The notes under the pieces were generated by a model that was not told the DNA's origin, searched no databases, and worked only from the letters and a program-made list of their open reading frames with translations. Below, in pieces: positions 31,747-50,200 of a stretch of DNA of 64,000 nt. The first letter of the stretch is position 1, and the number at the start of each line of letters is the position of its first letter. The position numbers were made by a program, and so were the translations under genes. The DNA comes from an uncultured delta proteobacterium. Its GTDB lineage: Bacteria > Desulfobacterota > Binatia > Binatales > Binataceae. The stretch covers positions 2,176,001 through 2,240,000 of the forward strand of contig CAWJET010000001.1 in the NCBI GenBank assembly GCA_963842085.1, given 5' to 3'.

Positions 31747-33465
31747 CTACTCCGGTAGACCAGCTTTGCGCAGGGCTTCGAGGTGGTGGGCGAGATCTGT
31801 CTCGCGTCGGTAGTGCAGCGCCGGCAGGCAATGCTCGCGGATGGTGAACCCGGGGCTGCGCTTGATTACCTCCGCAGCGTGCACGGTCGCGCGCTCGGCA
31901 TCGCCCATCTGTGCGTAGGAGGCCGCGAGCAGCGCGTGGTGCAACTCGCCTGGCGCGGTGATGTGTCTGAGGGACTCGACCGCCTCGGCGTAACGCTTTG
32001 CGGCGAACTGGGCGCGTGCTAGGTGGAACCAGAAACGCTCGGGGTGGTAGGGATTGAGGCGCATCGCCTTGCGGATCCATTCGATGCCGTCCTCTCCCTG
32101 GCCGAGCCAGGTCATGATCTCGCCCTGCTGGACCACGATCAGATCGTCGTTCGGATTCAGGGCCAGCGCGCGCTGCTGGTGGTAGACGGCTTTATCGAAA
32201 TCGTTGCGCATCACCGCCACAGCCGCGAGGATACGGTGCACGTCGCTGTCGTTCTCGTCCAGCCCGAGTGCGACTTGCAGCTCCCGTTCGATCTCTGATG
32301 CGAGCGCCGCGACGTCGGCGCACCAGCCACTGCCCCACTGCTGGCCAAGAATGCACGCGTGCCACGCATGCGCGTGAGCGTACCGCGGGTCCAGTTCGAT
32401 TGCGCGCCGGATGAGACTCAGCGCCCGCAGGTTGTCGTCGCGGTTCGAGCGGTGATGCAGGGTCTTGGCTTCTAGCACGCATTCATAGGAGACCATGTTC
32501 GCCGGGGGCTTGCGCTCGGTGCGGCTGCGCGCGGCGGCCTCCATGCGCCCGGGAAGCGTGGCGACGATTGCCGAAGTCACCTCGTCCTGGATCGCGAAGA
32601 TGTCCTCCAGATCCCGGTCGTAGCGCTCGGCCCAGATGTGGTGGTCGGATTCCGCGTCGATTAGCTGCACCGTGACACGCACCCGGTTGCCGGCCTTGCG
32701 CACGCTCCCCTCGACGAGGTATTGAACGCCGACTTCGCGTGCGACCTTTTTCACATCCACCGCCTGTCCCTTGAACTTGAACGAGGTGTTGCGCGAAATC
32801 ACGAACAGCTCTCGGAAGCGCGACAGGTCGGTCAGGATGTCCTCGGTCAAGCCGTCGGCGAAGTACTCCTGCTCCGGCGCGCCGCTCATGTTGGCAAAGG
32901 GCAGCACAAGGATGGAGGGTTTCGCCGAGCCCGGTGCCGGGCCGGCGGCCACGCCGGTGCGAACCGTACGGACGCGGTACACCTTGACGCGCGCCGCGAT
33001 GTTCTTCAGCGGGGGTTCGCCGAGATCGTCGACCTCCAGCGTTATCTTGCCCGACGCGTCCTCCTTCACGCGGGACGAGATCACGATGCCGCCGTCTTCG
33101 GCCAGCGGTTCCAGCCGAGCCGCGACGATGACGCCGTCGCCGAACAAGTCGTCGCCCTCCGCCACCACCTCCCCCTGATGCACGCCGATTCGCAGGCGGA
33201 GGCCTTCAGCCTGGGCGTTCAAGACAGTTTGGATAGCGATGGCACAGCGCAATGCCTGCACCGCGCTGGGGAACTCCACCAGAAACCCATCGCCCATGGT
33301 TTTGAACAGGCGCCCACCGTGGGTGGCCGCCAAGGGCTCGATCACATCGGTGCGCAGCCGCCGAACGCGGGCCAGCGTGTCGGCTTCGTCGGCACCCATC
33401 TTGGCTGAGTAGCCGACAATGTCGGCCGCCAGGATGCCGGCGAGACGGCGATTGGCTTCGTCCAT
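31747..33465 (-). CDS. Class III adenylate/guanylate cyclase + TolB-N-like + TPR protein
   Basis: ILAADIVGYS, KTMGDG, VLPFANMS...EYFADGLTED, TPR repeats. Confidence 0.9.
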   Translation of the reverse strand: MDEANRRLAGILAADIVGYSAKMGADEADTLARVRRLRTDVIEPLAATHGGRLFKTMGDGFLVEFPSAVQALRCAIAIQTVLNAQAEGLRLRIGVHQGEVVAEGDDLFGDGVIVAARLEPLAEDGGIVISSRVKEDASGKITLEVDDLGEPPLKNIAARVKVYRVRTVRTGVAAGPAPGSAKPSILVLPFANMSGAPEQEYFADGLTEDILTDLSRFRELFVISRNTSFKFKGQAVDVKKVAREVGVQYLVEGSVRKAGNRVRVTVQLIDAESDHHIWAERYDRDLEDIFAIQDEVTSAIVATLPGRMEAAARSRTERKPPANMVSYECVLEAKTLHHRSNRDDNLRALSLIRRAIELDPRYAHAHAWHACILGQQWGSGWCADVAALASEIERELQVALGLDENDSDVHRILAAVAVMRNDFDKAVYHQQRALALNPNDDLIVVQQGEIMTWLGQGEDGIEWIRKAMRLNPYHPERFWFHLARAQFAAKRYAEAVESLRHITAPGELHHALLAASYAQMGDAERATVHAAEVIKRSPGFTIREHCLPALHYRRETDLAHHLEALRKAGLPE

Positions 33466-34824: not shown

Positions 34825-36195
34825 ATGACCCCGCAGAACGCAGAATTCGACGAGCTGGTTTCGCTCGAACGGGGCGAAATCGATCGGCGCATCTACAGCG
34901 ACCCCGCGCTTTTCGAGCTCGAGATGGAGCGAATCTTTGCGCGCTGCTGGCTTTTCCTCTGTCACGAGTCGCAGATTCCCCAGCCCGGCGATTTCTTCCA
35001 GTCGGTGATGGGCCGCGACAATGTGCTCGTCGTCCGCCAGAAAGACGGCTCGATCAAGGCGATGCTCAACACCTGTGCGCATCGCGGCAACGCCGTCTGC
35101 CGCGCCGAAGAAGGCAACGCGAAGAGCTTCCTCTGCACCTATCACGGATGGTCCTACGGCATCGACGGCCGCCTGAACGGTGTACCCGGGCTGAAAACCT
35201 TTTACAGAGGCGAGTTGGATAAATCGCGCCACGGGCTGGCTCAGGTGGCGCAGGTGGCCAATTACAAGGGATTCATATTCGGCACTGAGGATGCCTCCGC
35301 GCCGCCATTGAAAGAATACCTTGGCGCGACTGGCCGACTCGGCCTTGACCTGATTGCTTTGCGGGGCGACATGGAAGTCGTCCCCGGTATTCAGAAGTTT
35401 GTAATCGAGTGTAACTGGAAGATCGCCGTCGATAATCTCTTCGACTGGTATCATCCGCAGATATCCCACGCCTCCGCATTTCAGCCTGGTGTTCTTCCGG
35501 CAGGGCCGGAGCCCACGGGCGGCTTTGAACGAATCGACATGGGCGGGGTCAACATGCAGAGCGGTGCTGGTCTCGATCTTCCCGGAAACGGCATCGCCGG
35601 CACGAAGTTCGAGACACTCGTGGTGCTCGGCGAGTACGGGCACGCGATCGCCGGTCCGAGTACATCTTCGTCAGGCTATTTCGAATTCGACCCAAGTTGG
35701 CGAGGCAACCCGCAGGCGCAGGCTGGACTCGGCCCGGTCGGCAGCCGGGTAGCAGGCCATCCGAATATCTTTCCGACGAGTTGGGTATCTACCACTCTCC
35801 CTCAAATTTCGTTGCGAATCCCGCGCGATCCGACTCATACCGAGATTTGGTGGTTCACGTTCGTCGATCGCAACGCGCCGCGCGAGACTCGCGATTTCAT
35901 TGTGACCATGGCCAATCGGGTTTTTGGTCCGGCAGGCGTTCTCGAACAGGACGATGGGGAGAATTGGGCGCAGGCGACAGCCCAGAGCCGCGGAACTGCG
36001 AGCAAGCGGGTGAAACACTTGCTCAACATGGGCCTGGGCCACGGGAAAATCATCAAGGAAGGGGGCCTCTCGCGAATTCAGGGGCTTACGAACGAGTACG
36101 GACAACTGTGGACCTATCATTCGTGGGCACAATGGATGAAGTCCCTGAAATGGGACGAACTTAGAAAGGCGACCACGCCGGGCGATTGCATATGA
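34825..36195 (+). CDS. Rieske aromatic ring-hydroxylating dioxygenase alpha subunit
   Basis: CAHRG...CTYHGW Rieske motif; NWK, DWYH-xxx-SH and EQDD mononuclear Fe ligands. Confidence 0.93.
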   Translation: MTPQNAEFDELVSLERGEIDRRIYSDPALFELEMERIFARCWLFLCHESQIPQPGDFFQSVMGRDNVLVVRQKDGSIKAMLNTCAHRGNAVCRAEEGNAKSFLCTYHGWSYGIDGRLNGVPGLKTFYRGELDKSRHGLAQVAQVANYKGFIFGTEDASAPPLKEYLGATGRLGLDLIALRGDMEVVPGIQKFVIECNWKIAVDNLFDWYHPQISHASAFQPGVLPAGPEPTGGFERIDMGGVNMQSGAGLDLPGNGIAGTKFETLVVLGEYGHAIAGPSTSSSGYFEFDPSWRGNPQAQAGLGPVGSRVAGHPNIFPTSWVSTTLPQISLRIPRDPTHTEIWWFTFVDRNAPRETRDFIVTMANRVFGPAGVLEQDDGENWAQATAQSRGTASKRVKHLLNMGLGHGKIIKEGGLSRIQGLTNEYGQLWTYHSWAQWMKSLKWDELRKATTPGDCI

Positions 36196-36743
36196 GTGAG
36201 CACGCGGGTACGGAATCGGCGCAGCGCGAGGATCGGATTGCGGCGATGCTGCTGCAATACGACGTCGAGCGCTTCTACTACGATGAAGCCGCTTTGCTCG
36301 ACGCACATCGCTACGAAGAATGGCTCGCGCTGTTCAGCGAGGACGCGCGGTACTTCATGCCGATTCGGCGCACGCGTACGCAGCGCGAGATGGACAAGGA
36401 ATTTACCCGGCCCGGCGAAATGGCATTCTTCGACGACACCAAGGAGTTGCTCGCTGGCCGGATTACCAAGCTGAAGACGGGCCGTTCCTGGGCCGAGGAT
36501 CCGCCGTCGCGCACGCGCCATCTGATTACCAATGTTCGCATCGTGCGCGACAACGGCCGCGAGCTCGAGGTCGAATCGAACTTCCACGTGTATCGCACGC
36601 GGCTCAACTCCGAAGAGACGTCGTGGATCGGATCGCGCAAAGATGTGCTGAGAAGGGCAGGGGAATCGTTCCAGATCGCCGATCGGCGGATCTACCTCGA
36701 ACAGACGGTGTTGCTCTCGCGCAATCTGAGTAACTTTTTCTGA
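36192..36743 (+). CDS. Aromatic ring-hydroxylating dioxygenase beta subunit
   Basis: EAALLD, WAEDPPSRTRHLITNV, NLSNFF. Confidence 0.93.
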   Translation: MSEHAGTESAQREDRIAAMLLQYDVERFYYDEAALLDAHRYEEWLALFSEDARYFMPIRRTRTQREMDKEFTRPGEMAFFDDTKELLAGRITKLKTGRSWAEDPPSRTRHLITNVRIVRDNGRELEVESNFHVYRTRLNSEETSWIGSRKDVLRRAGESFQIADRRIYLEQTVLLSRNLSNFF

Positions 36744-36744
36744 T

Positions 36745-37557
36745 ATGGGCTGGCTCGAAAACAAGGTCGCGCTCGTCACCGGGGGCGCTTCGGGGCTCGG
36801 GCGCGCAATCGTCGAGCGCTTCGTGCAGGAGGGTGCGCGCGTAGGGATTCTCGATCGCGCGCGCGATCGCAGCGAGGATTTGGCGAAACGGCTCGGCGAC
36901 GAAGTGCTGGCAATTGTTGGCGAGGTCACGGTGCTCGCCGATAACCATCGCGCGGTCGCGGAAACAGTTGCCAGGTTCGGCCGGCTCGATTGTTTCGTCG
37001 GCAACGCTGGCATCTGGGATTTCGGGATGTCGCTCGCTGCGTTGCCCGAAGATCGAATCGACAAGGCATTCGACGAGCTATTCGGTGTGAACGTGAAAGG
37101 CTACATGCTGGGCGCGAAGGCGGCGTATCGCGAGCTCGCGAAGACGCGCGGCTCGATCATTTTTACCGTCTCCAACGCCGGCTTCTATCCGTGCGGCGGC
37201 GGGCCTCTGTACACGGCGTCGAAGCATGCAGTCGTCGGGCTGATCCGGCAGCTTGCGTACGAGCTCGCGCCGAAGATTCGGGTCAACGGTGTCGCGCCCG
37301 GCGCGATTCCGACCGATCTGCGCGGGCCGCGCTCGCTCGACATGGGCGAGCAATCGATCGCTGCGGTGCCGCTCAAAGAGATGGCGGAGCGCGGGATTCC
37401 GCTCGGCAAACTGCCCGAACCGCGCGACTATACCGGCTCGTACGTGCTGCTCGCGTCAGGAGAAAATTCGTCCACCGCAACCGGCGGTGTGATCATCTGC
37501 GAAGGTGGCATCGGCATCAGAGGTTTCGTCGACGCGGCGGGCGGCCGCGACCTATAG
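36745..37557 (+). CDS. cis-Dihydrodiol dehydrogenase (BphB/HcaB family)
   Basis: TGGASGLG, NAGIWD, SNAGFYP-GGGPLYTASKH, TDLRGP. Confidence 0.9.
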   Translation: MGWLENKVALVTGGASGLGRAIVERFVQEGARVGILDRARDRSEDLAKRLGDEVLAIVGEVTVLADNHRAVAETVARFGRLDCFVGNAGIWDFGMSLAALPEDRIDKAFDELFGVNVKGYMLGAKAAYRELAKTRGSIIFTVSNAGFYPCGGGPLYTASKHAVVGLIRQLAYELAPKIRVNGVAPGAIPTDLRGPRSLDMGEQSIAAVPLKEMAERGIPLGKLPEPRDYTGSYVLLASGENSSTATGGVIICEGGIGIRGFVDAAGGRDL

Positions 37558-37575
37558 CAAGGAGAGAATCGAACG

Positions 37576-38448
37576 ATGAGCGCAATCGAAAGCCTGGGCT
37601 ATGTAGGGCTCGGCGTGAAAGATCCCGCAGAATGGGAAAAGTTCGCGACGGATATCCTTGGGCTGCAGAGCAGCGCGTCCAACGGCCGCCGGGTGCTGCG
37701 GATGGACGACTACGCGTTTCGCTTCGCACTGGAGCAGGATGCCTCCGACGATATCGCGTACGCCGGATGGGAGGTCGCCGACGCGAGCGGCCTGCGCGAG
37801 GTGGCCGAGCGGCTGCGCGCTCTCGGCGTGGAAGTTCAAGCCGCGAGTGCCGACGATGCCGCCCGGCGGTGCGTCACTGAGATGATTCGCTTTGAAGACC
37901 CATTCGGCCTCAAGTGCGAGGCGTTCTACGGACCTTCGATCGAAGCGACGCCGTTTCGATCGCCGCGCCCGATCGACGGATTCGTCACCGGCCAGCAGGG
38001 CCTCGGGCACATTGTCGTCGGCGCTCCGGATATGCAGAAGAGCCTGCGCTTCTACACCGAGGGGCTCGGCTTTCGCCTGAGCGACACCATCGACATGAAG
38101 TTCGGCGACATGAAATTCACGATGGCTTTCATGCATTGCAACGCGCGCCATCACACCGTCGCGCTGATTCCGTTCCCCACGCCGAAGAAGCTGCATCACT
38201 TCATGATGCAACTGCGCTCGATCGACGACGTCGGCTCGACGATGTATCTGGTGCAGGATCGCAAGATCGAAATCACCGCGACACTCGGCCGTCACTCCAA
38301 CGATCACATGCTGTCGTTCTACCTGCGCACGCCGTCGGGCTTCGAGATCGAGTACGGATGGGGCGGGCGCGAGGTCGACGACGCGACCTGGCACGTGCAG
38401 AAGCATCACGCGCCCAGCATCTGGGGCCATCGCCGCGGCGGGATGTAA
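37576..38448 (+). CDS. Extradiol dioxygenase (BphC/HsaC family)
   Basis: GLGH, CNARHH, LHHFM, LGRHSND, FYLRTPSGFEIEYGWG. Confidence 0.92.
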   Translation: MSAIESLGYVGLGVKDPAEWEKFATDILGLQSSASNGRRVLRMDDYAFRFALEQDASDDIAYAGWEVADASGLREVAERLRALGVEVQAASADDAARRCVTEMIRFEDPFGLKCEAFYGPSIEATPFRSPRPIDGFVTGQQGLGHIVVGAPDMQKSLRFYTEGLGFRLSDTIDMKFGDMKFTMAFMHCNARHHTVALIPFPTPKKLHHFMMQLRSIDDVGSTMYLVQDRKIEITATLGRHSNDHMLSFYLRTPSGFEIEYGWGGREVDDATWHVQKHHAPSIWGHRRGGM

Positions 38449-38479: not shown

Positions 38480-39030
38480 TCGCCCTGGTACCGGTCTGTA
38501 ACACCGGATGAGTATTGTGCCGGCCGGCATCCTTGTTGATCTCGATGCCGAATGCACTCGACAATTGCTCGGCAACTTTCCGGCAGCCGAAGCGTGGATT
38601 TCGCCGCTTCATCTCGACGACCGCGTCAATCGCTTCTTTTGAGGGACCTTTGGGTCCAGGGCGATGACGCTTTCTCGAGTTGTAGAGAAGATAATACTTG
38701 CGCTTCACCAGGGCGTGGTAAAATCTCAGAAGAGTGGAAGGCTTCAGTATCACGGCCATCTTGCTCAAGCGTTCGCGTGACACTCTCAGCGTCAGCCGAT
38801 CCGTTCAAGTCAGATTCGGAGCACGTTGCCGCGAGCGCTTCATGATGAGTAACTGGTGTTTGACCGCGAGTGATTCTGCCGCCACTGCCCGAAGACCGCC
38901 CCTCCTGGCAAGCCTCGCCAGCGTGACCAGCAGATGGGCGGTCAAGATGAACATTTCTCGCCCGGAAGCGAACTTTAGCGGTAAGTGAAGGACCCACAAG
39001 AGTGCGTTTCGGAAGTGGTTTCTGCCAGAA
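38480..39030 (-). mobile_element. Integrase-core IS transposase remnant, N-terminal part (frameshifted)
   Basis: AESLAVKHQLLIMKRSRQRAPNL / KPSTLLRF...PGPKGPS...MKRRNPRFG...FGIEINKD. Confidence 0.8.
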
Positions 39031-39053: not shown

Positions 39054-39746
39054 TCAGCTTTGTGAGTGCTGACGTTTAAGGAATTCGATCTCTTCCTTCG
39101 TCGATTGCCGTCCGAGCGCCTGGTTTCGGCCGGGAAACCTGCCGAATCGCCGAATTGTATCAAGATGCAAGTCGGCTGACTTCCGGATTGCCGTACTTTC
39201 CGGGGATTCGCCGTATTCGTCCGCGAGAGCGACGGCCAGGCGCACCGATTCCATTTGATCCTTTAGATGTTCACTGTGTTCGAAGGGCAGATACAAAAAC
39301 ATCCGCATGACTTGCGGCAATTCGCGATCGAATCCGGATGCAATTGCGTGACGGCTGACCTCGCGTGCTTTAGCGTCCGTCGCAAACGCTCGCGCGGTGT
39401 CGCGGAACATGTTGCGTGGAAATTGATCCAGCAATAATACCAGCGCGAGACAACTTCTGGGGGCTTTCTTCCAGCTGTCCAGGCGGCCAAACGCAGCGTC
39501 CAGGTAACTGTTGAGGAAAAGAGACTTACAAAGCCGGTCGAACTCGGGATCGGGCACGAACCATCGTGACCAAAGATGGACGGCATCCTCGGCGGCATGA
39601 CCGGGCGTCATCCAGAAATTGAGGATGCGCTCCGCTTGCGAAGCTGTGCGTCTGCTGTCCGGAGGGTCTTTAGAAGATACGCTTCGTCCGGCCTTTGATC
39701 CTGGTTTTTTCGCATCTTGGGCGATCTTTTGCTTGCGCCGCTCCAT
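39054..39746 (-). CDS. DUF924 family protein
   Basis: ILNFW, LLDQFPRNMFR, FLYLPFEHSE, RFGRFPGRN-ALGR-ST-EE. Confidence 0.9.
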   Translation of the reverse strand: MERRKQKIAQDAKKPGSKAGRSVSSKDPPDSRRTASQAERILNFWMTPGHAAEDAVHLWSRWFVPDPEFDRLCKSLFLNSYLDAAFGRLDSWKKAPRSCLALVLLLDQFPRNMFRDTARAFATDAKAREVSRHAIASGFDRELPQVMRMFLYLPFEHSEHLKDQMESVRLAVALADEYGESPESTAIRKSADLHLDTIRRFGRFPGRNQALGRQSTKEEIEFLKRQHSQS

Positions 39747-39750
39747 CGCC

Positions 39751-42700
39751 CTATGCGTTTAGTTCCTGAAGGAGCGCCCTGGCATCTCTCAAGTCCGCGG
39801 TGTCGAAACCTTCAGTGAACGATCCGTAGACTTCGGCGAGCAGCGGGCGCGCCTCTTCGCGGCGATTCAAGTCTTGCAGCAGCCGCGCAAGGCTGGTGCT
39901 GGCGCGCAACTCCCACGATTTGGCTCGTTGCTTGCGTGAGATATCGAGCGCCGAGTGAAAGGACTGCTCGGCCGCGGCCGCATTCGCCTTGTCGTGGCCC
40001 AATAGCAGTTCACCCTTCAGGCGATGCAACTCCGCCTGATAGTACTGTTGGCCGGTCCTCTCGGTGAAAAGGAATGCCTCCTCTAGCGCGGCGAGCCCCT
40101 CTTCATACCGCCCTGCGCGGCCCAGGGCCGTGGCGACAAATGTAAGACACCGATCGGTTATATACTCGGAGCCGCCGGCCTTAAGCTGTGACATGTGGGC
40201 TTTCATCTTCGCGATGCCACCCTCCAGGTCGCCGTCGAGCACATCGGCCCATCCCAGATAGATTTCGCTGAGCGCCCTGCCCGTGAACAGACCGGAAGCG
40301 GTCGCTATTGCGAGTCTGGCCTCCGCTCTGGCTCGCATTTGCCGGGTTTCGCGCCGAAGCTCGCAAATGTAGGCCGCGAATCCATTCAAGTCGCCGATCA
40401 AGCTCTTTGACCTACGATTATCCGTTGCGGTCGCGCTATTCATTCGTTCCACCGCTCGATCGGGGTAACCGAGAAACCACAGGTTCCAACCTGAAATGAT
40501 GCGATTGTTTTCCAATGTGTAGAAAAGCTGGACCGCTGCCTGCGCCTGGGAAATCTGTGTTGCGCGTCCGTCCGTGAAACCTGATGCCGGTTTGGCGATC
40601 GATTCCAGAACTGTCCATGTTCGATCGAAAGCATCGGCGGCGGCTTCGAAATCCCCCGCGACCATTTTGGTGTAGGCCAGCCAATTGCCGGCTTCCGCGA
40701 GGAGTCCGTCGGCGCCGTGTTCTTCGGCGCGCGCGACCAATTCGGAAGCGATCGCTCCCGCTCTCCGCACGTCGGGACGCATCTGCTGCACGAAGTAAAT
40801 GCCGAAGAGCGCCCACCAGCTTTTTTCCCAGTTGACGCCGGGACGTTGACAAAGGGCTATTGCGCGCTCGGTCGAGCCTTCGACTTCTGGCGAAGCGAGT
40901 CCCTTTATATCTCCGAGGGCGCTATAGGCCGCGTTGCGCAGGTCCAACTCCCGGTCGGCGCGCGACTCGTCGTCGGGAAGCTTCTGTAGGAGATCGAGTC
41001 CGGTTTCGAAAAGCGCGACTGCCTCGGCGAGCGAGCCGCGCGCTTGGCTTTGCTCGATCGCAAGGAGGCAATATCCGACTGCTTTTTCGTGATTACCGCT
41101 GCGGGCGTAGTGGTACGTCAGCGCCGCAAGGTGATCGCCCAGGTTATCGCGATAGACCGATTCCAGGCCGTAGCCGATCCGTTCGTGCAGCAACCGCCGG
41201 CGTTCATTGAGAACCGAGTTATACGCAACGTCATGGGTGAGAGCATGCTTGAACGTGTACTCAAGGTCTCCTACCGCCGGCTGTTCGTAGATGAACTCAC
41301 CCAGCTGAAGCTCGGATAGCATCGACTCCAGGTCAGATGCTGCCGGGTCCGCATCTTTGCGCGACAGAGTCAGCGCCATCGTTGCCGCTTCGGGATTCGT
41401 GCTCGCAATCGCCGAGATGGTTGGCGGCTGCCATACCTGACGAACCAGACCGAGCTTGAACTCCATTCCGATGACGGCGAGCGTTTGCAGCAAATCTTTC
41501 TGGTCCGGCGGCAAGCGGTCGATGCGCGCGGCCAGGATTGCCTGAACCGTGGGTGGAATCTTCAGCTCGCGCAGCGGTTTGGTGAGCCTCGTAGTGCCGT
41601 TGCGCACCAGTGCCCCTTCGTCCAGGAGAACCTGTACAGTCTCTTCCATAAAGAAGGGGTTGCCCTCGGTCTTCTCTATGATGATCCGCTTGAGTGGTGC
41701 TAAATCCGGCTCGCTCCCAAGCAGAGCGGTCAGCATCTCATCCGCGCTTTCCTTACCAAGCGGGTCGAGCCGCAACTGCGTATAGTAGGTTTTGTTCCCC
41801 CATTCGTGGCGGTACTCCGGCCGATAGTTGACCAGGAGCAGGATCCGCGCGGTGCCGATAGAGTCCGCGAGCAAGTTCAGAAACGCCTGCGACTCACTAT
41901 CGATCCAGTGCAGGTCTTCGAATACGACGATGAGCGGCTGGTTCAGGCTTTCGCGCAGAAGTATCCGCTTGACCGCGTCGAGCGCGCGATGCTTTCGAGT
42001 TTGTGCCTTGATTTCCGCAATCTGATTGTCTTCATCGGCGATGCCGAGCAGGCCGTACAGGTACTGAAGCGTATCTTCCAGCGAACGATCGAGCGTCAGT
42101 ACCTTGCCGTTGATCTTCTCGCGCCGCTTGCGCGCATCATCTTCGGACGAAATCTCGAAGTACGAGTACAGCAGGTCGATCAGCGGAAAGAATGCTGAAG
42201 CCTGTCCGTGTGAGACCGAGAATGCTTCGAGCACCATCCAGCCCGATCGCGACGCAGCCTTGAACTCGAACAGGAGGCGTGACTTGCCGACCCCCGCCTC
42301 AGCCATCGCCGCGACGATCTGGCCGCGCCCCGCTTTCGCCTGCTCGGCGGCGCGTTTGATGGCTTGTATTTCATTCTGCCGCCCGACGAACTTGGTGTAG
42401 CCGCGCCCCGCCGATCGCTGCAGACGAGTGCGCAGAGGTCCCAGCCCTGTTACTTCGTACAGCTCAACCGGTTCGCTGACCCCCTTGATACGCGCGAGCC
42501 CCAGCCCGTTGAGCGTGAAGTAGCCCTCGACCAACCTGCTCACAGCGCGAGTGATCGCGATCGATCCCGGTGGCGCCAGCGCCTGCAATCGCGAGGCGAG
42601 GCTTATCGAGTGACCTATCGGCGAATACTCGGTGTCTGTCTCACCCTTTTTTATTGTTCGGACCACCACTTCGCCGACATTGACCCCAATTCGGATCGTG

Positions 42701-43230
42701 ACGGGTGGCTCTCCGCGCTCTCGCAGCCGATCCGAGTAACGCCTGAGGTCCTCCTGCATGCGCAACGCGGCATAAAGCGCGTGCTGCGGATGATCCTCGA
42801 GCGCAATTGGCGCGCCGAACACCGCGAAGATTCCGTCGCCCGTCGATTGGGCGACATAGCCGCCGTAACGGCGGACTGCCTCGATCATCAGCTGAAGGGC
42901 CGGATCAACGATCGCGCGCGCCTCTTCGGGATCGAGGTTCTCGATCATCTCCATCGACCCCTTGATATCGGCGAAGAGCGCGGTGACAGTCTTCCGCTCG
43001 CCTTCACTGGCGGCGGGATCATGCTGCTCCGGCACGGGCGCGGGCTCGCTCGCAGCCGGCTTCGTAGCACGCGCTTTCGCATCGAGTGGGGCGCCGCAAT
43101 CGCGGCAGAACTTCGCGGGAGGCGAATACTCCGCGCCGCACTTCGGACACTTGGCGGCAAAAGGATTCCCACACTCAGCGCAGAATCTGGTGCCGGGCGG
43201 ATTTTCGGAGCTGCAGTTTGAGCAGCGCAT
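39751..43230 (-). CDS. STAND NTPase: double zinc ribbon + class III cyclase + AAA ATPase + TPR
   Basis: Four CxxC; LFADIKGS, GDG; AEAGVGKS; EDLHW; TEGNPFF; C-terminal ELHRLKGELLL, WELRA, FTEGFDT. Confidence 0.92.
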   Translation of the reverse strand: MRCSNCSSENPPGTRFCAECGNPFAAKCPKCGAEYSPPAKFCRDCGAPLDAKARATKPAASEPAPVPEQHDPAASEGERKTVTALFADIKGSMEMIENLDPEEARAIVDPALQLMIEAVRRYGGYVAQSTGDGIFAVFGAPIALEDHPQHALYAALRMQEDLRRYSDRLRERGEPPVTIRIGVNVGEVVVRTIKKGETDTEYSPIGHSISLASRLQALAPPGSIAITRAVSRLVEGYFTLNGLGLARIKGVSEPVELYEVTGLGPLRTRLQRSAGRGYTKFVGRQNEIQAIKRAAEQAKAGRGQIVAAMAEAGVGKSRLLFEFKAASRSGWMVLEAFSVSHGQASAFFPLIDLLYSYFEISSEDDARKRREKINGKVLTLDRSLEDTLQYLYGLLGIADEDNQIAEIKAQTRKHRALDAVKRILLRESLNQPLIVVFEDLHWIDSESQAFLNLLADSIGTARILLLVNYRPEYRHEWGNKTYYTQLRLDPLGKESADEMLTALLGSEPDLAPLKRIIIEKTEGNPFFMEETVQVLLDEGALVRNGTTRLTKPLRELKIPPTVQAILAARIDRLPPDQKDLLQTLAVIGMEFKLGLVRQVWQPPTISAIASTNPEAATMALTLSRKDADPAASDLESMLSELQLGEFIYEQPAVGDLEYTFKHALTHDVAYNSVLNERRRLLHERIGYGLESVYRDNLGDHLAALTYHYARSGNHEKAVGYCLLAIEQSQARGSLAEAVALFETGLDLLQKLPDDESRADRELDLRNAAYSALGDIKGLASPEVEGSTERAIALCQRPGVNWEKSWWALFGIYFVQQMRPDVRRAGAIASELVARAEEHGADGLLAEAGNWLAYTKMVAGDFEAAADAFDRTWTVLESIAKPASGFTDGRATQISQAQAAVQLFYTLENNRIISGWNLWFLGYPDRAVERMNSATATDNRRSKSLIGDLNGFAAYICELRRETRQMRARAEARLAIATASGLFTGRALSEIYLGWADVLDGDLEGGIAKMKAHMSQLKAGGSEYITDRCLTFVATALGRAGRYEEGLAALEEAFLFTERTGQQYYQAELHRLKGELLLGHDKANAAAAEQSFHSALDISRKQRAKSWELRASTSLARLLQDLNRREEARPLLAEVYGSFTEGFDTADLRDARALLQELNA

Positions 43231-43248
43231 CTGCCGATTCCGGGCCCG

Positions 43249-43950
43249 CTACGGCTTGACGACCTCGCCGCGATGATCCTTGTACATCCGGTCGCGCCAG
43301 GCGAATACTTCAGAGAACGCCGGATCGTCGCCGAGCTGGTCGCGGTAGACGAACCGCAGTTCCGGCGTAAAGACGAAAAACTTTTGGGGCGCCGCTTTCA
43401 ACACCATCAGCATCGCTGCGACGGTCACGTCGGCGCGAGTGAACGTATCGCCGACCAGATATTGACGCCCGCTCAGCGTGTCCCTGAGACTCGTCAAGAT
43501 CCTTGTGGCAGTGAGCCTGCTCTGCTCTTCCGCAAATTCTGAGTAGCCGTACTTTTCCGCGAAGTACTTTCCGCTCTTTTGCGCTTCGGGATCGTCGATG
43601 CGGAGCAGGCGCCCGGTGATCAATGTGCGACCATGGGGTCCCAGCGCGTTAAGCGCGATCTCCTCCCATAGCGTCACCATCGCGCGCTCTTTCGCCGACT
43701 TGGGTAACAGCGCCGGCTCCGGTCTCGTTTCCTCGAGCCAATCCAAAATTGCGCTGGAATCGGGAATCACCTTATCGCCAGTGATCAACACCGGCACCAT
43801 CGCCTGGCCGGTCAACTTCTTCACCGCGGCCTCGCCGACGCCGGGCTCGTAATTCTGCTTCTCGTAGGGCAATCGTTTGAATGCGAAGGCCCATCGGACC
43901 CGCTCCGACCAGGGCGATCCGTACATTGTGATCAGCTTGGTTGTGCCCAT
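43249..43950 (-). CDS. Glutathione S-transferase family protein
   Basis: SPWSERVRWA, VPVL, DSSAI, YLVGDTFTRAD; GGAGG RBS. Confidence 0.88.
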   Translation of the reverse strand: MGTTKLITMYGSPWSERVRWAFAFKRLPYEKQNYEPGVGEAAVKKLTGQAMVPVLITGDKVIPDSSAILDWLEETRPEPALLPKSAKERAMVTLWEEIALNALGPHGRTLITGRLLRIDDPEAQKSGKYFAEKYGYSEFAEEQSRLTATRILTSLRDTLSGRQYLVGDTFTRADVTVAAMLMVLKAAPQKFFVFTPELRFVYRDQLGDDPAFSEVFAWRDRMYKDHRGEVVKP

Positions 43951-44035
43951 GATCAAACCTCCCCGAGGAATCCTTTCGATGTTTCACCCCCCGAGAATCG
44001 TAAGGCGGTCGAAGCTGGCCGCCAATGCTTTTTGG

Positions 44036-44064
44036 CTGAACTTTGTCTGAACTCGATCTGAACT
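44036..44064. promoter_or_regulatory. Triple CTGAACT direct repeat with 11-bp period (OmpR/PhoB/SARP-type site candidate)
   Basis: Exact copies at 44036, 44047 and 44058 in a divergent intergenic region. Confidence 0.7.
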
Positions 44065-44136
44065 TTCGCGGAAAAAAGAATGCGTCGAGCCTATACGCTC
44101 GCCAGACGCGGAAGTAGAATCGGCGAAAGCCGCAAA

Positions 44137-47079
44137 ATGCCCAATGATCTCGTCCAGTTCGACGATTTTGTGTTGAATCGCTCCGCTTGCGAGCTCCGCC
44201 GTGGCGATGCGTTAGTGCCGCTACAGCGGGTTCCGCTCGAGCTTCTATCTTTCTTGCTCGAACGCCGCGGGAAGTTGGTTACGCGCAAGGAGATTCTGGA
44301 ACGCGTGTGGGGCAAAGGGGTTTTCGTCGATGGCGAGACCAGTATCAACACCGCGGTGCGAAAGCTCCGACGGGCGTTGTCAGACGATCCTCACGCGCCG
44401 CGATTCGTCGCGACGGTGCCGGCGAGAGGTTATCGATTCGTCGCGGAAATCCGCTCGCCGAAGCCGGGTATTATGGCGCGTCCCGCAGGCCCGCGATCGT
44501 CGGTAATGGTAGGGCGCGAGCACGAGCTGGCCTCATTGATTGGCGGACTCGACGATGCGGCGGCGCGGCGCGGGCGGTTGTTTCTGATTTGCGGCGAACC
44601 GGGCGTGGGCAAGACGCGGCTGGCAGACGAGGTGGCGACCGTTGCCGAGGCGAAGCGAATGGCGCTGATGGTCGGGCACTGCTCGGAACACGATGAAGCC
44701 ATCGCCTATCTGCCTTTCGTTGAAATCCTGGAAAACTTCGTGGAACGCTCCGAGCGTCCGGAGCGTTTGCGTGCCGCATTGGGAACCGACGGTCCGGAAC
44801 TCGCCCGCTTACTTCCCAAGCTGAAAAAAGTTGTACCGGAACTTCTTCCCCCGATAGCTTTGCCGCCTGCTCAGGCCCGACGCCACCTGCTCAACTGCTT
44901 CTTCGACTTCGCCGCTCGCGCTGCTTCCACTCGGCCGGTACTTATGATTCTCGAAGATCTTCATTGGGCCGACGATTCGACCTTGGCCCTGCTGGATCAC
45001 ATCGCGCAGCGGCTTTCGGATCAGCCGTTGATGGTTATCTGCACCTATCGCGATGCGGAGACGAACATCACACCGGTCCTGGCACGGACGCTCGAGGATC
45101 TCGTCCGCGGCCGACTCGCGACCGAAGTAAGGCTAAAGCGCCTGCCCCGCGGCGAAGTCGCCGCCATGCTGAGCAGCCTGAGCGGAAAGCCGCCGCCTCA
45201 GGGCATCGTTGCGGAAATATTCGCGGAGACCGAAGGTAATCCATTCTTCGTCGAAGAACTCTTTCATCATCTCGAAGATGAAGGTCGACTCTACGATGCG
45301 GAGGGACAATTCCGTTCAAAACTCCAGATCGGCGAGTTGGATGCGCCGCGCAGCGTTCGGCTTGTGGTCGCGAGACGACTGGCGCGGCTCGGCCGACTCA
45401 CCCGGGAGATACTGGCGGCCGCATCGGTGATTGGAAGATTTTTCAGCTTCGAAGTTCTTCAGGCTCTCTACGACGACGATGCCGATTCGATTCTGGAATG
45501 CCTCGAAGAAGCGGAGAAGGCAGGTCTACTGGTGTCGGTCGCGACCGGCTCACAGGCGCGGTTTGCCTTCTCACACGAGCTGATTCGTCAGGCGGTGCTC
45601 GGCGGTTTGTCGGCGATGCGGCGTCAGCGACTTCATTTGAAAATAGCTGACGCAATCGAGCAAATGGCTTCCACCATGTCCGAACAGACATCTGCCACGA
45701 GCCGCGACGAACTGGCCGCCCAGCTCGCGCATCACCACGCCCGGGGCGGAAATCCGGACAAGGCCGTCGAGTACTACCTAAGCGCCGTTCGGCAGCTTGC
45801 GGACCTCGGCTCCAACGTCGAGGCGATTGCGATGTTCAACGCAGGCCTTGAACTATTGGGGGAACTACCTGATGACGACCGGCGGACAAAGCTGGAGATC
45901 GACCTTCGATTCGCCGCCAACGAACCATTGGGAGACAGCAAGGGGCTGGCATCGGCGGAAATAGAGCAGTCGATCGACCGCGCGCTCGCGCTATGCAAAA
46001 GGCCGGGGATCAACTGGGAAAGAACCTGGTGGGCTTTGTACAACGCGTTTTGGGTTCACCATCTCCGTCCCGATACCCGCAGGGCGCGCGATATCGCTGC
46101 TGAGCTTGTCGCGGGAGCCGAGGGGAAGGGTACCGCCGCGCATATTGCGGAGGCCGAGACTTCGTTTGCTTGGGCGAGGATGTACTCGGGTGAGTTCGAG
46201 CTCGCTGATCAAGGCTTCGAGCGTGCGTGGGTGCATCTGGAATCGATTCAGAACCGCGCATCGACTTTACCGCCGCCCGATGGATCCGATCGCGAAGTGC
46301 GTACTATCTCGCAACTAGGCACTCCTCAGAACAACCGTGCGGTATCCGGGTGGAACCTGTGGTTCATGGGCTATCCGGATCGCGCGGTGGAGCGAATGAA
46401 TGTCGCCACGGCAATCGCGAATGCGGGGGTTAAGACGATGCTCGCTGACATCCACGGCTTCGCCAGTTACATTCACGAGCTTCGCCGCGAACCCGAGCTG
46501 ATGAAAGCGCGGGCCGAGGCAAGGCTGCAGCTTTCAATCGAATGGGGCTATCCCACCGGCAAGGCATTGAGCGAAATCTACCTCGGCTGGGCCGATGCGA
46601 TAGCAGGCGATTTGGAGCGCGGCATGGCGCGCATACGACAGTATCTGTCCGAAGTGAAGGCCAGCGGCTGCGAGTACGTGTATGACCGGTGCCTCTCGTT
46701 CATAGCAATCGCGCTCAGCCGAATGGGACGGTTCGATGAAGCGCTCAAAGCCATCGACGAGTCATTTTCCTTCACCGACAGAACCGGCCAGCACTACTAC
46801 GAGGCCGAACTGCATCGACTAAAGGGCGAGCTACTGCTAGCCCGCAATCCATCAGACGGCGCGCGCGCTGAGCGATGCTTTCGCTCCGCGATCGATATTG
46901 CGCGCGAGCAGCAAGCGCGTTCCTGGGAATTGCGCGCCGCGACAAGCCTCGCACGACTTGCGAGAGGCACGAAACGTGAGAGTGGGGCGCGAACTATTCT
47001 GTCGGCAGCCTACGGATGGTTCACGGAGGGTTTCGATACCCGGGATCTGAAAGATGCTAGGGTGCTACTCAACGACTAG
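44137..47079 (+). CDS. STAND NTPase: OmpR/PhoB-type wHTH + AAA ATPase + TPR
   Basis: LRRAL-D...TVPARGYRF wHTH; GEPGVGKT; EDLHW; TEGNPFF; WELRA, FTEGFDT. Confidence 0.92.
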   Translation: MPNDLVQFDDFVLNRSACELRRGDALVPLQRVPLELLSFLLERRGKLVTRKEILERVWGKGVFVDGETSINTAVRKLRRALSDDPHAPRFVATVPARGYRFVAEIRSPKPGIMARPAGPRSSVMVGREHELASLIGGLDDAAARRGRLFLICGEPGVGKTRLADEVATVAEAKRMALMVGHCSEHDEAIAYLPFVEILENFVERSERPERLRAALGTDGPELARLLPKLKKVVPELLPPIALPPAQARRHLLNCFFDFAARAASTRPVLMILEDLHWADDSTLALLDHIAQRLSDQPLMVICTYRDAETNITPVLARTLEDLVRGRLATEVRLKRLPRGEVAAMLSSLSGKPPPQGIVAEIFAETEGNPFFVEELFHHLEDEGRLYDAEGQFRSKLQIGELDAPRSVRLVVARRLARLGRLTREILAAASVIGRFFSFEVLQALYDDDADSILECLEEAEKAGLLVSVATGSQARFAFSHELIRQAVLGGLSAMRRQRLHLKIADAIEQMASTMSEQTSATSRDELAAQLAHHHARGGNPDKAVEYYLSAVRQLADLGSNVEAIAMFNAGLELLGELPDDDRRTKLEIDLRFAANEPLGDSKGLASAEIEQSIDRALALCKRPGINWERTWWALYNAFWVHHLRPDTRRARDIAAELVAGAEGKGTAAHIAEAETSFAWARMYSGEFELADQGFERAWVHLESIQNRASTLPPPDGSDREVRTISQLGTPQNNRAVSGWNLWFMGYPDRAVERMNVATAIANAGVKTMLADIHGFASYIHELRREPELMKARAEARLQLSIEWGYPTGKALSEIYLGWADAIAGDLERGMARIRQYLSEVKASGCEYVYDRCLSFIAIALSRMGRFDEALKAIDESFSFTDRTGQHYYEAELHRLKGELLLARNPSDGARAERCFRSAIDIAREQQARSWELRAATSLARLARGTKRESGARTILSAAYGWFTEGFDTRDLKDARVLLND

Positions 47080-47118: not shown

Positions 47119-47173
47119 GCTGTCCGAGATCCTTCACATGCGCTCTCGTCGCTCGCTTCGTTCAGGATGACAA
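47119..47173 (-). repeat. REP-like element (TGTCATCCTGA-CGAAGCGA...GAAGGATCTC family)
   Basis: Related copies at 57261-57358 and 59484-59525; all lie between convergent genes. Confidence 0.65.
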
Positions 47174-47219
47174 AATTCCTTGCGTTGCAGACGACGTGCG
47201 CGGCAGATTGGCCTAAGAA

Positions 47220-47642
47220 TCAGCGTGTCGCGGATTTCAGGGTGGCGGCTTCTACTCGGGCGCGGGCTAGTTGCAGGGCTTCCTGAGCTGGCTGGTAGGC
47301 TGGGTCGTAGAAGCTCAGAGTTGAGAATTGTTCGTCGGCTTGTTGTACTTCGGCGGTCGCGGCGCTTGCGTCGATGGTCTCGGGGGATTCGGCGCTGCTG
47401 GCTAACACTGTCATTACGCTGTCTTTCACTTCGGCCAGGCCGCCGGAGACTACCCAATGCATCCTGGTGCCATCGGGGAGGCGCGCTTCCAGGACGCCGG
47501 GGACTAGCGACGTTATGAAGTTGATGTGTTCGGGCAGGACACCGAATTCGCCTAGCGGTCCTATGGCTGAGACTTCTTCGGCGTCGCCTTCGAAGACTAT
47601 GCCGGTGGGCGTGACCAGTCTGAATGGGAACGTTGCGGCCAT
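47220..47642 (-). CDS. atpC: ATP synthase F1 epsilon subunit
   Basis: LVTP, GEFGVLPEH, VSGGLAEV; operon position. Confidence 0.93.
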   Translation of the reverse strand: MAATFPFRLVTPTGIVFEGDAEEVSAIGPLGEFGVLPEHINFITSLVPGVLEARLPDGTRMHWVVSGGLAEVKDSVMTVLASSAESPETIDASAATAEVQQADEQFSTLSFYDPAYQPAQEALQLARARVEAATLKSATR

Positions 47643-47654
47643 CGTGGGATTCCG

Positions 47655-49258
<1,604 letters not shown>

Positions 49259-49294
49259 AAGAGCAGAGGGAAGAGAACCGGATAAGAAAAGAGT

Positions 49295-50200
49295 TCATCC
49301 GCGCAACGCCTCGGCACCGCCGACTATGTCCATCAACTCGCGCGTGATTTGCGCCTGGCGGGCGCGGTTCATCTCAAGCGTGAGCGACGAGATCATGTCG
49401 TTGGCATTGTTGGTCGCACTATCCATCGCGGTCATGCGCGCGCCCTGCTCGCTGGCTTCGGCCTCGAGCAGAGCGTGAAAGACGGCGGCTTCGAGATATC
49501 CGCGCAGCACGACCGGCACCAGTTCCTCGCGCGAGGGCTCGATCAGGTAGTCGATTTTGGGCGCGTCGGACTTCGAGACAGACGCGTCAACTTCGGCGCC
49601 TGGCTTGATGCCCGCGTCGCCCGGCGGCTTGATCGGCAGCAGGCGCTCGTAAAGCGGCTTCTGCACGAGGGCGGACTGGAAATGAGTATAGACGATGCCG
49701 GCTTCGTCGATGGCGCCGGAGCTGTAGTCGGCAAGCATTTTGGCGGCGATATCGCGGGCGAGCGCGATGGTGGCGAGGCGCGGAAGATTGTCGACTCGCG
49801 AGAGCGCGACCGGCACGCCGGCGCGGCGGAAATGATCGACGGCCTTTTTACCGACCGCAAACAGTTCGATGTCGAGTCCGGCGCCGCGGATTTCGCGCTG
49901 CGTCGCTTCGGCCGCGCGGAACAGGTACGAGTTGTAGCCGCCGGCCAAGCCGCGATCCGACGCGACCACCACCAGCAGTGAGCGCTTTTGCGCGCCCTCG
50001 ACCGGGCCGACCGAGATTCCCTCCGAGGTGAGCAGGGTATCAGCTACGCGCACCAGCGCCTCGCTGTAAGGCAATGCGTTGACGAGTGCTTCCTGCGCTC
50101 GACGCAGGCGCGCGGCCGAGACCAGCTTGAGCGCGCGCGTTATCTGCTGCGTTGATTTGGCCGACGCGATCCGGCGCCGGATTGCCTTGAGCGATGCCAT
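49295..50200 (-). CDS. atpG: ATP synthase F1 gamma subunit
   Basis: TQQITRALKLV, SDRGLAGGYN, ARMTAM, NRARQAQITRE. Confidence 0.97.
   Translation of the reverse strand: MASLKAIRRRIASAKSTQQITRALKLVSAARLRRAQEALVNALPYSEALVRVADTLLTSEGISVGPVEGAQKRSLLVVVASDRGLAGGYNSYLFRAAEATQREIRGAGLDIELFAVGKKAVDHFRRAGVPVALSRVDNLPRLATIALARDIAAKMLADYSSGAIDEAGIVYTHFQSALVQKPLYERLLPIKPPGDAGIKPGAEVDASVSKSDAPKIDYLIEPSREELVPVVLRGYLEAAVFHALLEAEASEQGARMTAMDSATNNANDMISSLTLEMNRARQAQITRELMDIVGGAEALRG

Follow-up and report, generated by a model that had tools for sequence, protein, structure and literature searches.

A divergent pair of STAND genes with sensors of one clade and a predicted operator in an uncultured Binataceae bacterium

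In the window, i.e., the whole stretch of 64,000 nucleotides that was analysed, genes for a GST, a cyclase-STAND and a DUF924 protein form one minus-strand operon with gaps of 18 bp (43231-43248) and 4 bp (39747-39750), divergent from a plus-strand gene encoding a wHTH/AAA_16/TPR protein. This layout, gaps included, had been described in the original prediction and is borne out by the open reading frames. The source organism of the module is an uncultured soil bacterium, and close protein homologues carry the source names Candidatus Binatus or Binataceae. The features of the locus are as follows.

39054-39746, minus strand: DUF924 gene (P0004, 230 aa), last in the operon (Pfam PF06041, 3.3e-59, 200 bits)
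39751-43230, minus strand: cyclase-STAND gene (P0001, 1159 aa) with two zinc ribbons, class III cyclase, AAA_16 NTPase and TPR sensor (Pfam)
42457-42996, minus strand: class III cyclase domain of P0001, residues 79-258 (PF00211, Guanylate_cyc, 66 bits)
41842-42393, minus strand: AAA_16 NTPase core of P0001, clade A, Pfam residues 280-463 (PF13191, 69.8 bits; NTPase tree)
39754-41163, minus strand: TPR sensor cassette of P0001, residues ~690-1159 (identity rise versus P0002; sensor trees)
43249-43956, minus strand: GST gene (P0003), first in the operon (Pfam GST_N_3 and GST_C)
43997-44025, minus strand: putative operon promoter, -35 TTGGCG (44020-44025), 17-nt spacer, -10 TACGAT (43997-44002), read by eye
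44036-44063, plus strand: predicted operator, CTGAAC repeated directly three times at 11-bp intervals (scan of genome and relatives)
44080-47079, plus strand: wHTH-STAND gene (P0002, 999 aa from the first ATG; Pfam)
44218-44439, plus strand: OmpR/PhoB-type winged helix of P0002, residues 47-120 (PF00486, Trans_reg_C, 63.8 bits)
44509-45039, plus strand: AAA_16 NTPase core of P0002, clade B, Pfam residues 144-320 (PF13191, 93.9 bits)
45682-47076, plus strand: TPR sensor cassette of P0002, residues ~535-999 (BLASTP, regional and sliding-window identity, sensor tree)

The GST likely starts at the ATG at 43950, 6 nt downstream of a GGAGGT Shine-Dalgarno motif read from the sequence at 43957-43962; its orthologues are 233 aa long. 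For the wHTH-STAND, the ATG at 44137 (M20), resulting in 980 aa, is the likely start, because the orthologues begin there.

STAND (NLR-like) proteins have mostly been studied singly, and mostly in immunity. From the Pfam domains of P0001 and P0002, the three-part layout of this class with N-terminal effector, NOD and C-terminal repeat sensor can be deduced, and both proteins carry the Walker A and Walker B motifs of the STAND P-loop NTPases. G172, G177, K178, T179 and D293 are invariant among P0002 orthologues, as are A310-S317, including Walker A K316/S317, and Walker B D439 among those of P0001, the cyclase-type Walker A showing Ala instead of Gly at its first position. The AF2 model of P0002 (mean pLDDT 77) has its best Foldseek matches in the STAND-TPR protein 6mfv (9.8e-12), Avs3 and Apaf-1, with TM-scores that are low (0.15-0.3) because the model is multi-domain.

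The closest solved structure to the P0001 cyclase is 2w01 (5.6e-26). Its six catalytic positions read D-Q-D-S-S-R versus the family consensus D-Q-D-T-N-R. While all 50 aligned family members possess the metal-binding Asp residues D88 and D132 and the transition-state Arg R214, the transition-state Asn is absent from P0001, which has Ser at 210 (Asn in 31, Ser in 18 and Gly in one of the 50 members), as have all 12 closest operon orthologues. At the substrate-specifying positions, alignment to CyaB and Cya2 revealed neither canonical pair in P0001 (Lys/Asp for ATP, Glu/Cys-type for GTP) but Gln128, found in 48 of the 50 family members, and Ser at position 203, where 43 of the 50 have Thr. Because of the Ser replacing Asn and the Gln/Ser at the substrate-specifying positions, cyclase activity and product are uncertain. 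With the profile of TOMM kinase/cyclase fusions (TIGR03903), scores of 351 and 261 bits stayed below the curated cut-off (705.75), and Pfam detected no kinase domain.

The order of a class III cyclase, a STAND-type ATPase and TPR is also known from mycobacterial Rv0386, Rv1358 and Rv2488c, described in a preprint that refers as well to a Gln-Asn pair showing both adenylyl and guanylyl activity (bioRxiv 10.1101/2024.03.06.583649). A replacement of the substrate-specifying Lys by Gln is likewise present in P0001. Reportedly, the Gln-Asn pair with both activities was assigned to Rv0386 by Castro et al. in 2005. In contrast to the present locus with its two proteins, whose ATPases are unrelated and whose sensors are of one type, however, the mycobacterial proteins combine cyclase and HTH (LuxR) in one chain, whereas P0001 bears N-terminal zinc ribbons and lacks an HTH. 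P0002, on the other hand, resembles AfsR, the large SARP from Streptomyces (OmpR-type, BTAD, NOD, TPR), in placing a winged helix of this type (PF00486, 63.8 bits) before STAND NTPase and TPR. Unlike in AfsR, a BTAD is missing, with no Pfam match in P0002 at E values up to 0.01 and AAA_16 beginning 24 residues past the wHTH, and the NTPase is of the AAA_16 type. MalT and other LAL-type activators also join a signal-dependent STAND NTPase and a helical-repeat sensor to transcription control, and paralogues of the present proteins give weak TPR_MalT profile matches; the DNA-binding domain of these activators, however, is C-terminal and of the LuxR type, whereas that of P0002 is N-terminal and OmpR-type.

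BLASTP aligns P0001 and P0002 with 40% identity across 915 colinear residues. The ATPase parts share only 23% identity (392 aligned positions) versus 55% for the sensor parts (451 aligned positions), and in a sliding window identity climbs from less than 30% to 45-65% near P0001 residue ~690. No alignment was obtained between the N-terminal effectors. These values agree with the less alike NTPases and unrelated effectors of the original prediction, whose shared C-terminal motif pairs, such as LGDIKGLAS/LGDSKGLAS and EYITDRCL/EYVYDRCL, were all recovered in the alignment, and its proposed check by per-domain phylogenies turned out accordingly. In the NTPase tree, 43 cyclase-type rows (clade A) and 23 wHTH-type rows (clade B) are separated with an SH-aLRT of 100 on each side and clade branch lengths of 2.5 and 2.9 (in changes per column). 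In the sensor tree, by contrast, 20 operon cyclase and 17 wHTH sensors group in one 37-row clade versus 11 other paralogues (support 100/100), inside which the wHTH sensors interleave with the cyclase sensors. Eight signature residues are common to both sensor sets and absent from the other paralogues, a count not independent of the sensor tree, while zero positions support either alternative grouping and fixed differences between cyclase-type and wHTH-type sensors also amount to zero.

Such similarity might reflect shared ancestry only, with the regulator controlling the operon while the two sensors read different cues, resulting in an AND gate on two inputs. In this genome, the paired sensors are 54% identical (about 67% at the DNA level), ranking 19th of the 20 cyclase partners compared and no closer than three unlinked cyclase-STAND paralogues with sensors 50-58% identical to that of P0001; par5, one unlinked paralogue, is at 56-58% as close as the neighbour P0002 (54-55%). 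On account of the 54% identity and the equally close par5, the specificities of the two sensors may have diverged. Moreover, sensor identity is 61.7% for within-genome versus 61.2% for between-genome pairs, with no apparent sign of ongoing homogenisation, and separate cues are in line with such a lack of concerted evolution. However, the zero fixed differences, the eight signature residues setting both sensor types against other paralogues and the interleaving in the tree argue for a common cue, and the two-input alternative is considered possible, albeit rather unlikely. The original prediction had itself named as contrary evidence that unlinked paralogues share the sensor motifs equally and that the pairing is not conserved elsewhere. 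Equally close unlinked sensors (50-58%) do exist, but the tree separates these paralogues and the pairing is found elsewhere.

Its check of neighbourhood conservation had a positive outcome, as a wHTH-STAND with this sensor adjoins the GST-cyclase-DUF924 operon in 13 of 19 related genomes (11 divergent, one likewise divergent but with 2.6 kb inserted, one co-directional), while regulators with this sensor are unlinked from the operon in the other 6 of 19. Of the seven flanking proteins examined from the window, none was conserved across 24 related loci, and the module occurs in differing genomic contexts among relatives. At three loci (L111, L127 and L137), an in-frame fusion joins DUF924 to the cyclase-STAND; the sole solved DUF924 relative is 2i6h, a hypothetical protein. 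With at least 12 related STAND genes in the genome and a family prone to domain shuffling, the two genes might also be nothing more than adjacent members of an expanded paralogue family, devoid of functional coupling. This is quite improbable, however, considering a linkage conserved where flanks are not, an exclusive sensor clade and an operator kept at both transcription units when these are split.

The predicted operator consists of CTGAAC-N5 in three direct 11-bp repeats and is the sole site in the 4.93-Mb genome at up to one mismatch. Genus-wide, 21 of 41 genomes carry one or two sites (range 0-2 per genome), while the reversed pattern, used as control, had zero sites in the 41 genomes. 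The operator lies upstream of 23 of 25 wHTH-STAND genes and was likewise found ahead of 19 of the 23 GST operons; six of these operons (L112, L120, L121, L125, L127 and L148) have a site of their own, with no wHTH gene sharing it. Among the four operons devoid of it (L122, L131, L133 and L137), no wHTH-STAND orthologue was found in the genomes of the first three, and L137 represents a second copy of the operon in a genome (G154) possessing a wHTH-STAND (L117). The helix SINTA[VI]R of the winged helix is kept in 18 of 19 operator-bearing orthologues, the exception being L138 with L for R, and is altered in L035, an orthologue without operator. Given the operator conserved at both transcription units, the wHTH-STAND probably regulates its own gene and the cyclase operon. 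The repeats, three here and four in many relatives, are located upstream of the putative -35. Since a consensus promoter scan of the intergenic region found no promoter and the elements were read by eye, the operon promoter stays putative; a CCAA and a -10-like element are conserved in aligned intergenic regions. AfsR, an OmpR-type wHTH/NOD/TPR activator, binds 11-bp direct repeats by the promoter with one protomer per repeat (PMC10936776), the kind of target predicted for P0002, but its afs box is placed between -19 and -40. Furthermore, the predicted target of P0002 is a cyclase operon and not antibiotic genes.

The original prediction had also offered a hetero-oligomer. In this reading, the two STANDs would co-assemble like paired plant NLRs, one activating the other. 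Plant head-to-head NLR pairs, which act as sensor-helper hetero-complexes, are indeed likewise two divergent STAND genes kept together, and the conserved linkage as well as the similarity of sensors and last ~70 residues would be compatible with co-assembly. However, STANDs oligomerise via their NTPase modules, which are 23% identical here and belong to two deep clades, and in 6 of 19 cases the genes are unlinked. As these unlinked genes each keep an operator, regulation in trans fits better than obligate co-assembly, rendering the hetero-oligomer highly improbable; in contrast to the plant pairs, the link would be transcriptional control, as predicted, and a common sensor type.

Equally improbable is an anti-phage system, based either on a cyclase akin to Pycsar or on an Avs-like STAND that senses a phage protein. 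PycC profiles match the cyclase domain weakly (best 3.7e-16), TPR-STANDs include Avs proteins, with the P0002 model matching the Avs3 fold, and the module resides in different genomic contexts. Precedent comes from Avs7 and Dsr1, two different defence proteins in which a homologous sensor on unrelated output machinery recognises one trigger (PMC13581612). These, however, act in anti-phage defence and are not known as a regulated gene pair, whereas here both carriers are STANDs and neighbours, one being predicted to regulate the other. A Pfam cNMP-binding domain, as in an activated Pycsar effector, was detected neither in the four cluster proteins nor in nine flanking ORFs (four of these matching no family), and PADLOC assigned no STAND defence family to the P0001 NTPase or sensor and only mad8 (1.3e-4) to P0002. 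The checked flanks encode catabolic (aromatic-catabolism) enzymes and ATP synthase subunits, and one of the two outputs is a predicted autoregulated transcription factor. In addition, 14 cyclase and 10 cNMP-binding domains above cut-off in the genome point to ordinary signalling. The phage sensing proposed in the original prediction hence finds no support, PADLOC giving only generic PycC matches for the cyclase and the neighbours not being defence genes. The electrophile cue suggested there has likewise gained no support.

Evidence for mobility of the sensor comes from comparing the wHTH-STANDs L135 and L119, which are 68-95% identical up to about residue 510, only 21-35% over residues 520-880 and again 75% in the last 70 residues. 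These mosaic breakpoints identify the TPR sensor as a cassette exchangeable between conserved flanks. The L135 regulator adjoins the operon and has kept the operator despite its different sensor, indicating that adjacency does not require a shared sensor, an observation in favour of different cues.

Taken together, we consider it somewhat more probable than its alternatives combined that the locus is a self-contained four-gene module, in which the wHTH-STAND controls itself and the operon and same-clade sensors establish a coherent feed-forward. Accordingly worded as a model, the regulator (OmpR-type wHTH, clade-B AAA_16, TPR sensor) would bind the triple repeat in the divergent intergenic region and, from there, control its own gene as well as the GST/cyclase-STAND/DUF924 operon, presumably by activation rather than repression. 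The sensor would have passed as a cassette from one STAND lineage to the other, most simply from cyclase to regulator, and the same or a closely related cue would relieve autoinhibition in both STANDs. While the regulator would raise the amount of cyclase, the cue would switch it on for cyclic nucleotide formation. The feed-forward loop of the original prediction is thus strengthened by the conserved operator, the circuit itself staying conditional, and one identical ligand for both proteins is plausible in view of the shared signature residues and absent fixed differences.

A more far-reaching version of this feed-forward model is only tentatively put forward. Conserved recombination handles, one at the NTPase-arm junction and the other a C-terminal cap ~70 residues long that is also present as orphan fragments around the genome, might make the sensor portable between unrelated STAND scaffolds, so that the same cue would be read by a transcription factor as well as by a second-messenger synthase in a hard-wired coherent feed-forward loop. 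DUF924, which some lineages have fused to the sensor, might, perhaps together with the GST, make, process or present the ligand, which, if true, would be the first function for this family.

The locus is best described as a variant of known STAND signalling, to which the predicted operator adds a new element beyond the original prediction. It represents a natural, conserved case of one sensor type on two unrelated STAND engines, with transcription and cyclic nucleotide as predicted outputs. Mapped breakpoints and the predicted operator make sensor interchangeability directly testable by swap chimeras with junctions validated by nature; although the organism is uncultured, the parts are soluble proteins and short DNA amenable to heterologous testing. 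Moreover, the uncharacterised class of OmpR-wHTH STAND regulators would obtain a small, defined predicted regulon with one or two sites in each genome, and operon conservation together with gene fusion provides a first functional handle on DUF924.

The cluster is composed of a three-gene operon, with gaps of 18 and 4 bp between the genes, and a divergent fourth gene:

43249-43956, minus strand: GST, operon gene 1
39751-43230, minus strand: cyclase-STAND (P0001), 1159 aa, with two zinc ribbons, a class III cyclase domain, an AAA_16 NTPase and TPR repeats
39054-39746, minus strand: DUF924 protein, last operon gene
44080-47079, divergent from the operon: wHTH-STAND (P0002), 999 aa, with an OmpR-type winged helix, an AAA_16 NTPase and TPR repeats

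The operon and the divergent STAND pair of the original prediction are both present, and all motif pairs quoted there were recovered in a BLASTP alignment of the two STAND proteins, which are colinear with 40% identity over 915 residues. By part, the identity is 23% in the ATPase and 55% in the C-terminal TPR cassette (the sensor), the rise starting near residue 690 of P0001; in P0002, the natural junction is at about residue 535. Walker motifs are conserved among orthologues in both NTPases, and the AF2 model of the wHTH-STAND (pLDDT 77) finds its best fold matches in a STAND-TPR crystal structure, Avs3 and Apaf-1.

Within the genome (4.93 Mb, two contigs), the P0001 sensor retrieves 20 matches (E <= 1e-5), and domain scans together with gene maps reveal at least eight genes of the zinc-ribbon/cyclase/AAA_16/TPR type as well as other wHTH-type or effector-less relatives. 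Sensors 51-58% identical to that of P0001 reside in four other genes, namely the neighbour (54%) and three unlinked ones (51, 52 and 58%). By raw identity alone, therefore, the situation that was to speak against the idea, unlinked paralogues having the sensor motifs too, is partly seen in this genome. Three of its cyclase-STAND paralogues are split by a frameshift into two overlapping ORFs each, one for the cyclase part and one for the NTPase-sensor part (L022, G000:C1:2877181-2891862; L023, G000:C1:1789127-1803748; L024, G000:C2:1269343-1283151); these are either frameshifted pseudogenes or assembly indel errors.

A further 57 loci were gathered, both from this genome and from related ones within the family. 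In the identity matrix, ATPases are 59-89% identical within the cyclase type, 46-66% within the wHTH type and only 22-29% between types, whereas the sensor of P0002 falls with the cyclase-type sensors. The ATPase tree of 66 rows is divided into two deep clades, 43 cyclase-type versus 23 wHTH-type (SH-aLRT 100 on each side), while a single sensor clade unites the sensors of 20 operon cyclase-STANDs and 17 wHTH-STANDs and leaves all other cyclase-STAND paralogues outside. Support for this clade is SH-aLRT 100 in the 66-row tree and 100/100 in a 48-row tree for which 11 other paralogues served as root, bearing out the predicted phylogeny with sensors together and NTPases apart. Within the shared clade, the wHTH sensors form three to four groups in the ML tree, and not one of 200 bootstrap trees unites them in a single clade; the AU test does not reject such a single clade (p = 0.167). 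Repeated sensor exchange between the pair is therefore not claimed, and one exchange is enough for the data. As wHTH scaffolds bear several sensor types and the other sensors of this broad type are all carried by cyclase-type scaffolds, a transfer out of the cyclase-STAND into the regulator would be the simpler direction. Both sensor sets have eight signature residues in common versus the other paralogues, with no fixed difference between the sets. To a limited extent, these residues and the interleaving in the tree, neither being independent of phylogeny, suggest a common ligand for both STANDs.

That the sensor is a cassette is clearest in a comparison of two closely related wHTH-STANDs, L135 and L119, with 68-95% identity up to about residue 510, 21-35% over residues 520-880 and again 75% in the last 70 residues. 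At L135 (G150:C4:1450000-1467000), a wHTH-STAND divergent to a GST/cyclase-STAND/DUF924 operon and retaining the CTGAAC operator bears a different sensor at the same position, with just 33% identity to the type seen in the window, a case of natural sensor replacement without change of locus. Family-wide, the C-terminal cap is conserved, and it is also present in the genome as short orphan fragments of about 30-40 residues, 63-69% identical (74-81% at the DNA level) and matching only the last part of the sensor (G000 C1:1095183-1095287, C1:482843-482947, C2:1277839-1277952, C2:1548383-1548484 and C2:1683915-1684004, for example), which may be left over from cassette exchange or from genes that have decayed. 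Concerted evolution between the two sensors is ruled out by a within-genome identity of sensor pairs of 61.7% versus 61.2% between genomes and by a DNA identity of the window's two sensors of about 67%; at 54.2% protein identity, the window's own pair ranks 19th of 20.

A sensor of this type was found in 40 of 151 sampled family genomes and in 10 of 30 genera (E <= 1e-90), a tally taking in two unpublished genomes which were left out of all later analysis. The predicted conservation of the pairing was confirmed in 13 of the 19 genomes with a readable wHTH-STAND bearing this sensor; in these 13, which belong to three genera, it lies beside the GST/cyclase-STAND/DUF924 operon. Eleven pairs have the plain divergent arrangement, L121 has it with a 2.6-kb insert and L120 is co-directional, while the regulator is unlinked in the remaining six genomes (L032, L124, L128, L138, L139 and L147). 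At another locus, L132, a contig end truncates the regulator. None of seven proteins flanking the cluster in the window recurs in 24 related loci, except for 30% matches to a dehydrogenase, indicating that the four genes travel as a unit. Among the best 120 holders of the sensor in a global protein collection (down to 54% identity), 69 have a cyclase domain, 37 a wHTH and 14 neither, the latter being mostly short gene calls; another effector on this sensor was not encountered among them. The closest holders (87-92% identical) come from sources named Candidatus Binatus or Binataceae. In genome G104, where the pair is split, the regulator has a GST beside it (L032, 79% identical), a second GST is the first gene of the cyclase operon (L112, 93%), and the cyclase-STAND is read in three frames.

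When the short intergenic regions were aligned for seven pairs, three direct repeats became apparent, CTGAAC-N5-CTGAAC-N5-CTGAAC, located at 44036-44063 in the window. With one mismatch allowed, the genome has no second site of this kind. In a genus scan, 21 of 41 genomes contain one or two of these operator sites and none of the 41 the reversed control pattern. Among the fetched loci, the repeat or a CTGAAG variant of it (L036 and L115) precedes 23 of 25 wHTH-STAND genes, including unlinked ones and ones bearing other sensors, at a distance to the start of about 60-75 nt in 21 genes and of about 180-240 nt in L120 and L121; of the 25 genes checked, L034 and L035 are devoid of it. Of 23 GST operons, 19 are likewise preceded by the operator. 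If the transcription units lie apart, each has its own operator copy in the orientation of the window; the GST-side copies at these split units (L112, L120, L121, L125, L127 and L148) show a window-like distance to the GST start in five of the six operons and about 680 bp in L127. The four operons without operator are L122, L131 and L133, in whose genomes (75-89% complete) no regulator orthologue was found with a 526-residue query, and L137, a second operon copy in a genome (G154) which has the regulator (L117). The recognition helix SINTA[VI]R is intact in 18 of 19 aligned operator-bearing orthologues, L138 having L for R, and is changed in the operator-less L035. Covariation of the CTGAAG variant with the recognition helix was ruled out, as the helix is unchanged in L036 and L115, which have other substitutions in common. 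In many relatives, the three CTGAAC repeats are preceded, at a distance of exactly 11 bp, by a fourth, weaker repeat, ATGGAC (L032 9908-9946, L111 10937-10975 and L135 10868-10906, for example), which is absent in the window.

The OmpR-type domain of AfsR binds 11-bp direct repeats, one protomer each, as described in PMC10936776. From the conserved operator we infer that the wHTH-STAND binds these repeats and controls its own gene and the cyclase operon. A candidate promoter just inside the repeats would place the operator at roughly -45 to -75, a position that would suit activation:

44025-43997, minus strand: putative operon promoter, TTGGCG - 17 nt - TACGAT, read by eye

A consensus promoter scan of 43800-44300 returned no promoter-like site. 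A terminator-like element, a GC-rich hairpin with a T run behind it (44004-44023, plus strand), is located between the divergent genes, where it overlaps the putative -35 element. At least 20 DNA sequencing runs, from soil and peat metagenomes, contain the locus, with no RNA run among the matches listed.

Regarding the outputs, all 50 family members retain both metal-binding Asp residues and the Arg of the putative cyclase. Gln replaces Lys at the substrate position in 48 of the 50, Thr or Ser occupies the Asp position, and the transition-state Asn is replaced by Ser in the window's putative cyclase (Ser210) and its 11 closest orthologues. DUF924 (PF06041) has one solved relative with unassigned function. 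It is fused in frame to the cyclase-STAND C-terminus at three related loci (L111 and L127 with a 3-residue linker, L137 with a longer one), and among the 120 best database holders of the sensor 10 bear PF06041, which argues that DUF924 may work together with this STAND. Complex prediction for the sensor (P0001 residues 690-1159) and DUF924 gave a score of 0.00 (mark 0.32), speaking neither for nor against binding. The GST belongs to the generic cytosolic kind and has an SPWS motif where the catalytic site is usually found.

Sensing of a phage product, as had been proposed, was not borne out, and a defence role of the module is unlikely. In PADLOC, the cyclase domain gives generic PycC matches only, and a cNMP-activated effector is not present at the cluster. 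The neighbours are not of a defence type either, with a Rieske ring-hydroxylating dioxygenase, a short-chain dehydrogenase and a BphC-like extradiol dioxygenase on one side (34825-38448, plus strand) and ATP synthase beta and gamma subunits on the other (47655-50200, minus strand). Two ORFs directly adjoining the cluster (47134-47742, minus strand, 202 aa; 38626-38997, minus strand, 123 aa) have no Pfam match, and a further class III cyclase domain is encoded about 6 kb away at 33001-33438 (minus strand) in a 573-aa open frame. Genome-wide, 14 cyclase domains and 10 cNMP-binding domains exceed the cut-off, none of the latter 10 being located in the window.

Among known systems, the regulator described here would work like AfsR, but it is without a BTAD domain and is hence not a SARP. 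Mycobacterial cyclase/ATPase/TPR/LuxR proteins resemble the cyclase-STAND, with the difference that both outputs are there in one chain. In defence, Avs7 and Dsr1 exemplify one sensor common to different output proteins, according to PMC13581612. A description of a conserved regulatory STAND pair with a common sensor, one member regulating the other, was not found in the literature searched; the STAND-clade and sensor-cluster tables of PMC13581612 may list the sensor cluster. Literature searches on DUF924 and on Binatota and adenylate cyclase returned nothing on this system, and neither did a search on AAA_16 and Trans_reg_C, which by title yielded Streptomyces and gene-neighbourhood methods. 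Of 57 papers on STAND sensor-domain swapping, the 12 listed do not treat such a pair, judging by title or abstract.

In the proposed mechanism, a cue would bind the TPR sensor of both STANDs, with the GST and DUF924 possibly having a role in this cue. The regulator would then oligomerise on the repeats and alter how its own gene and the operon are transcribed. The cyclase-STAND, its amount having risen, would be activated by the same cue and form a cyclic nucleotide, which may act through receptors encoded elsewhere in the genome.
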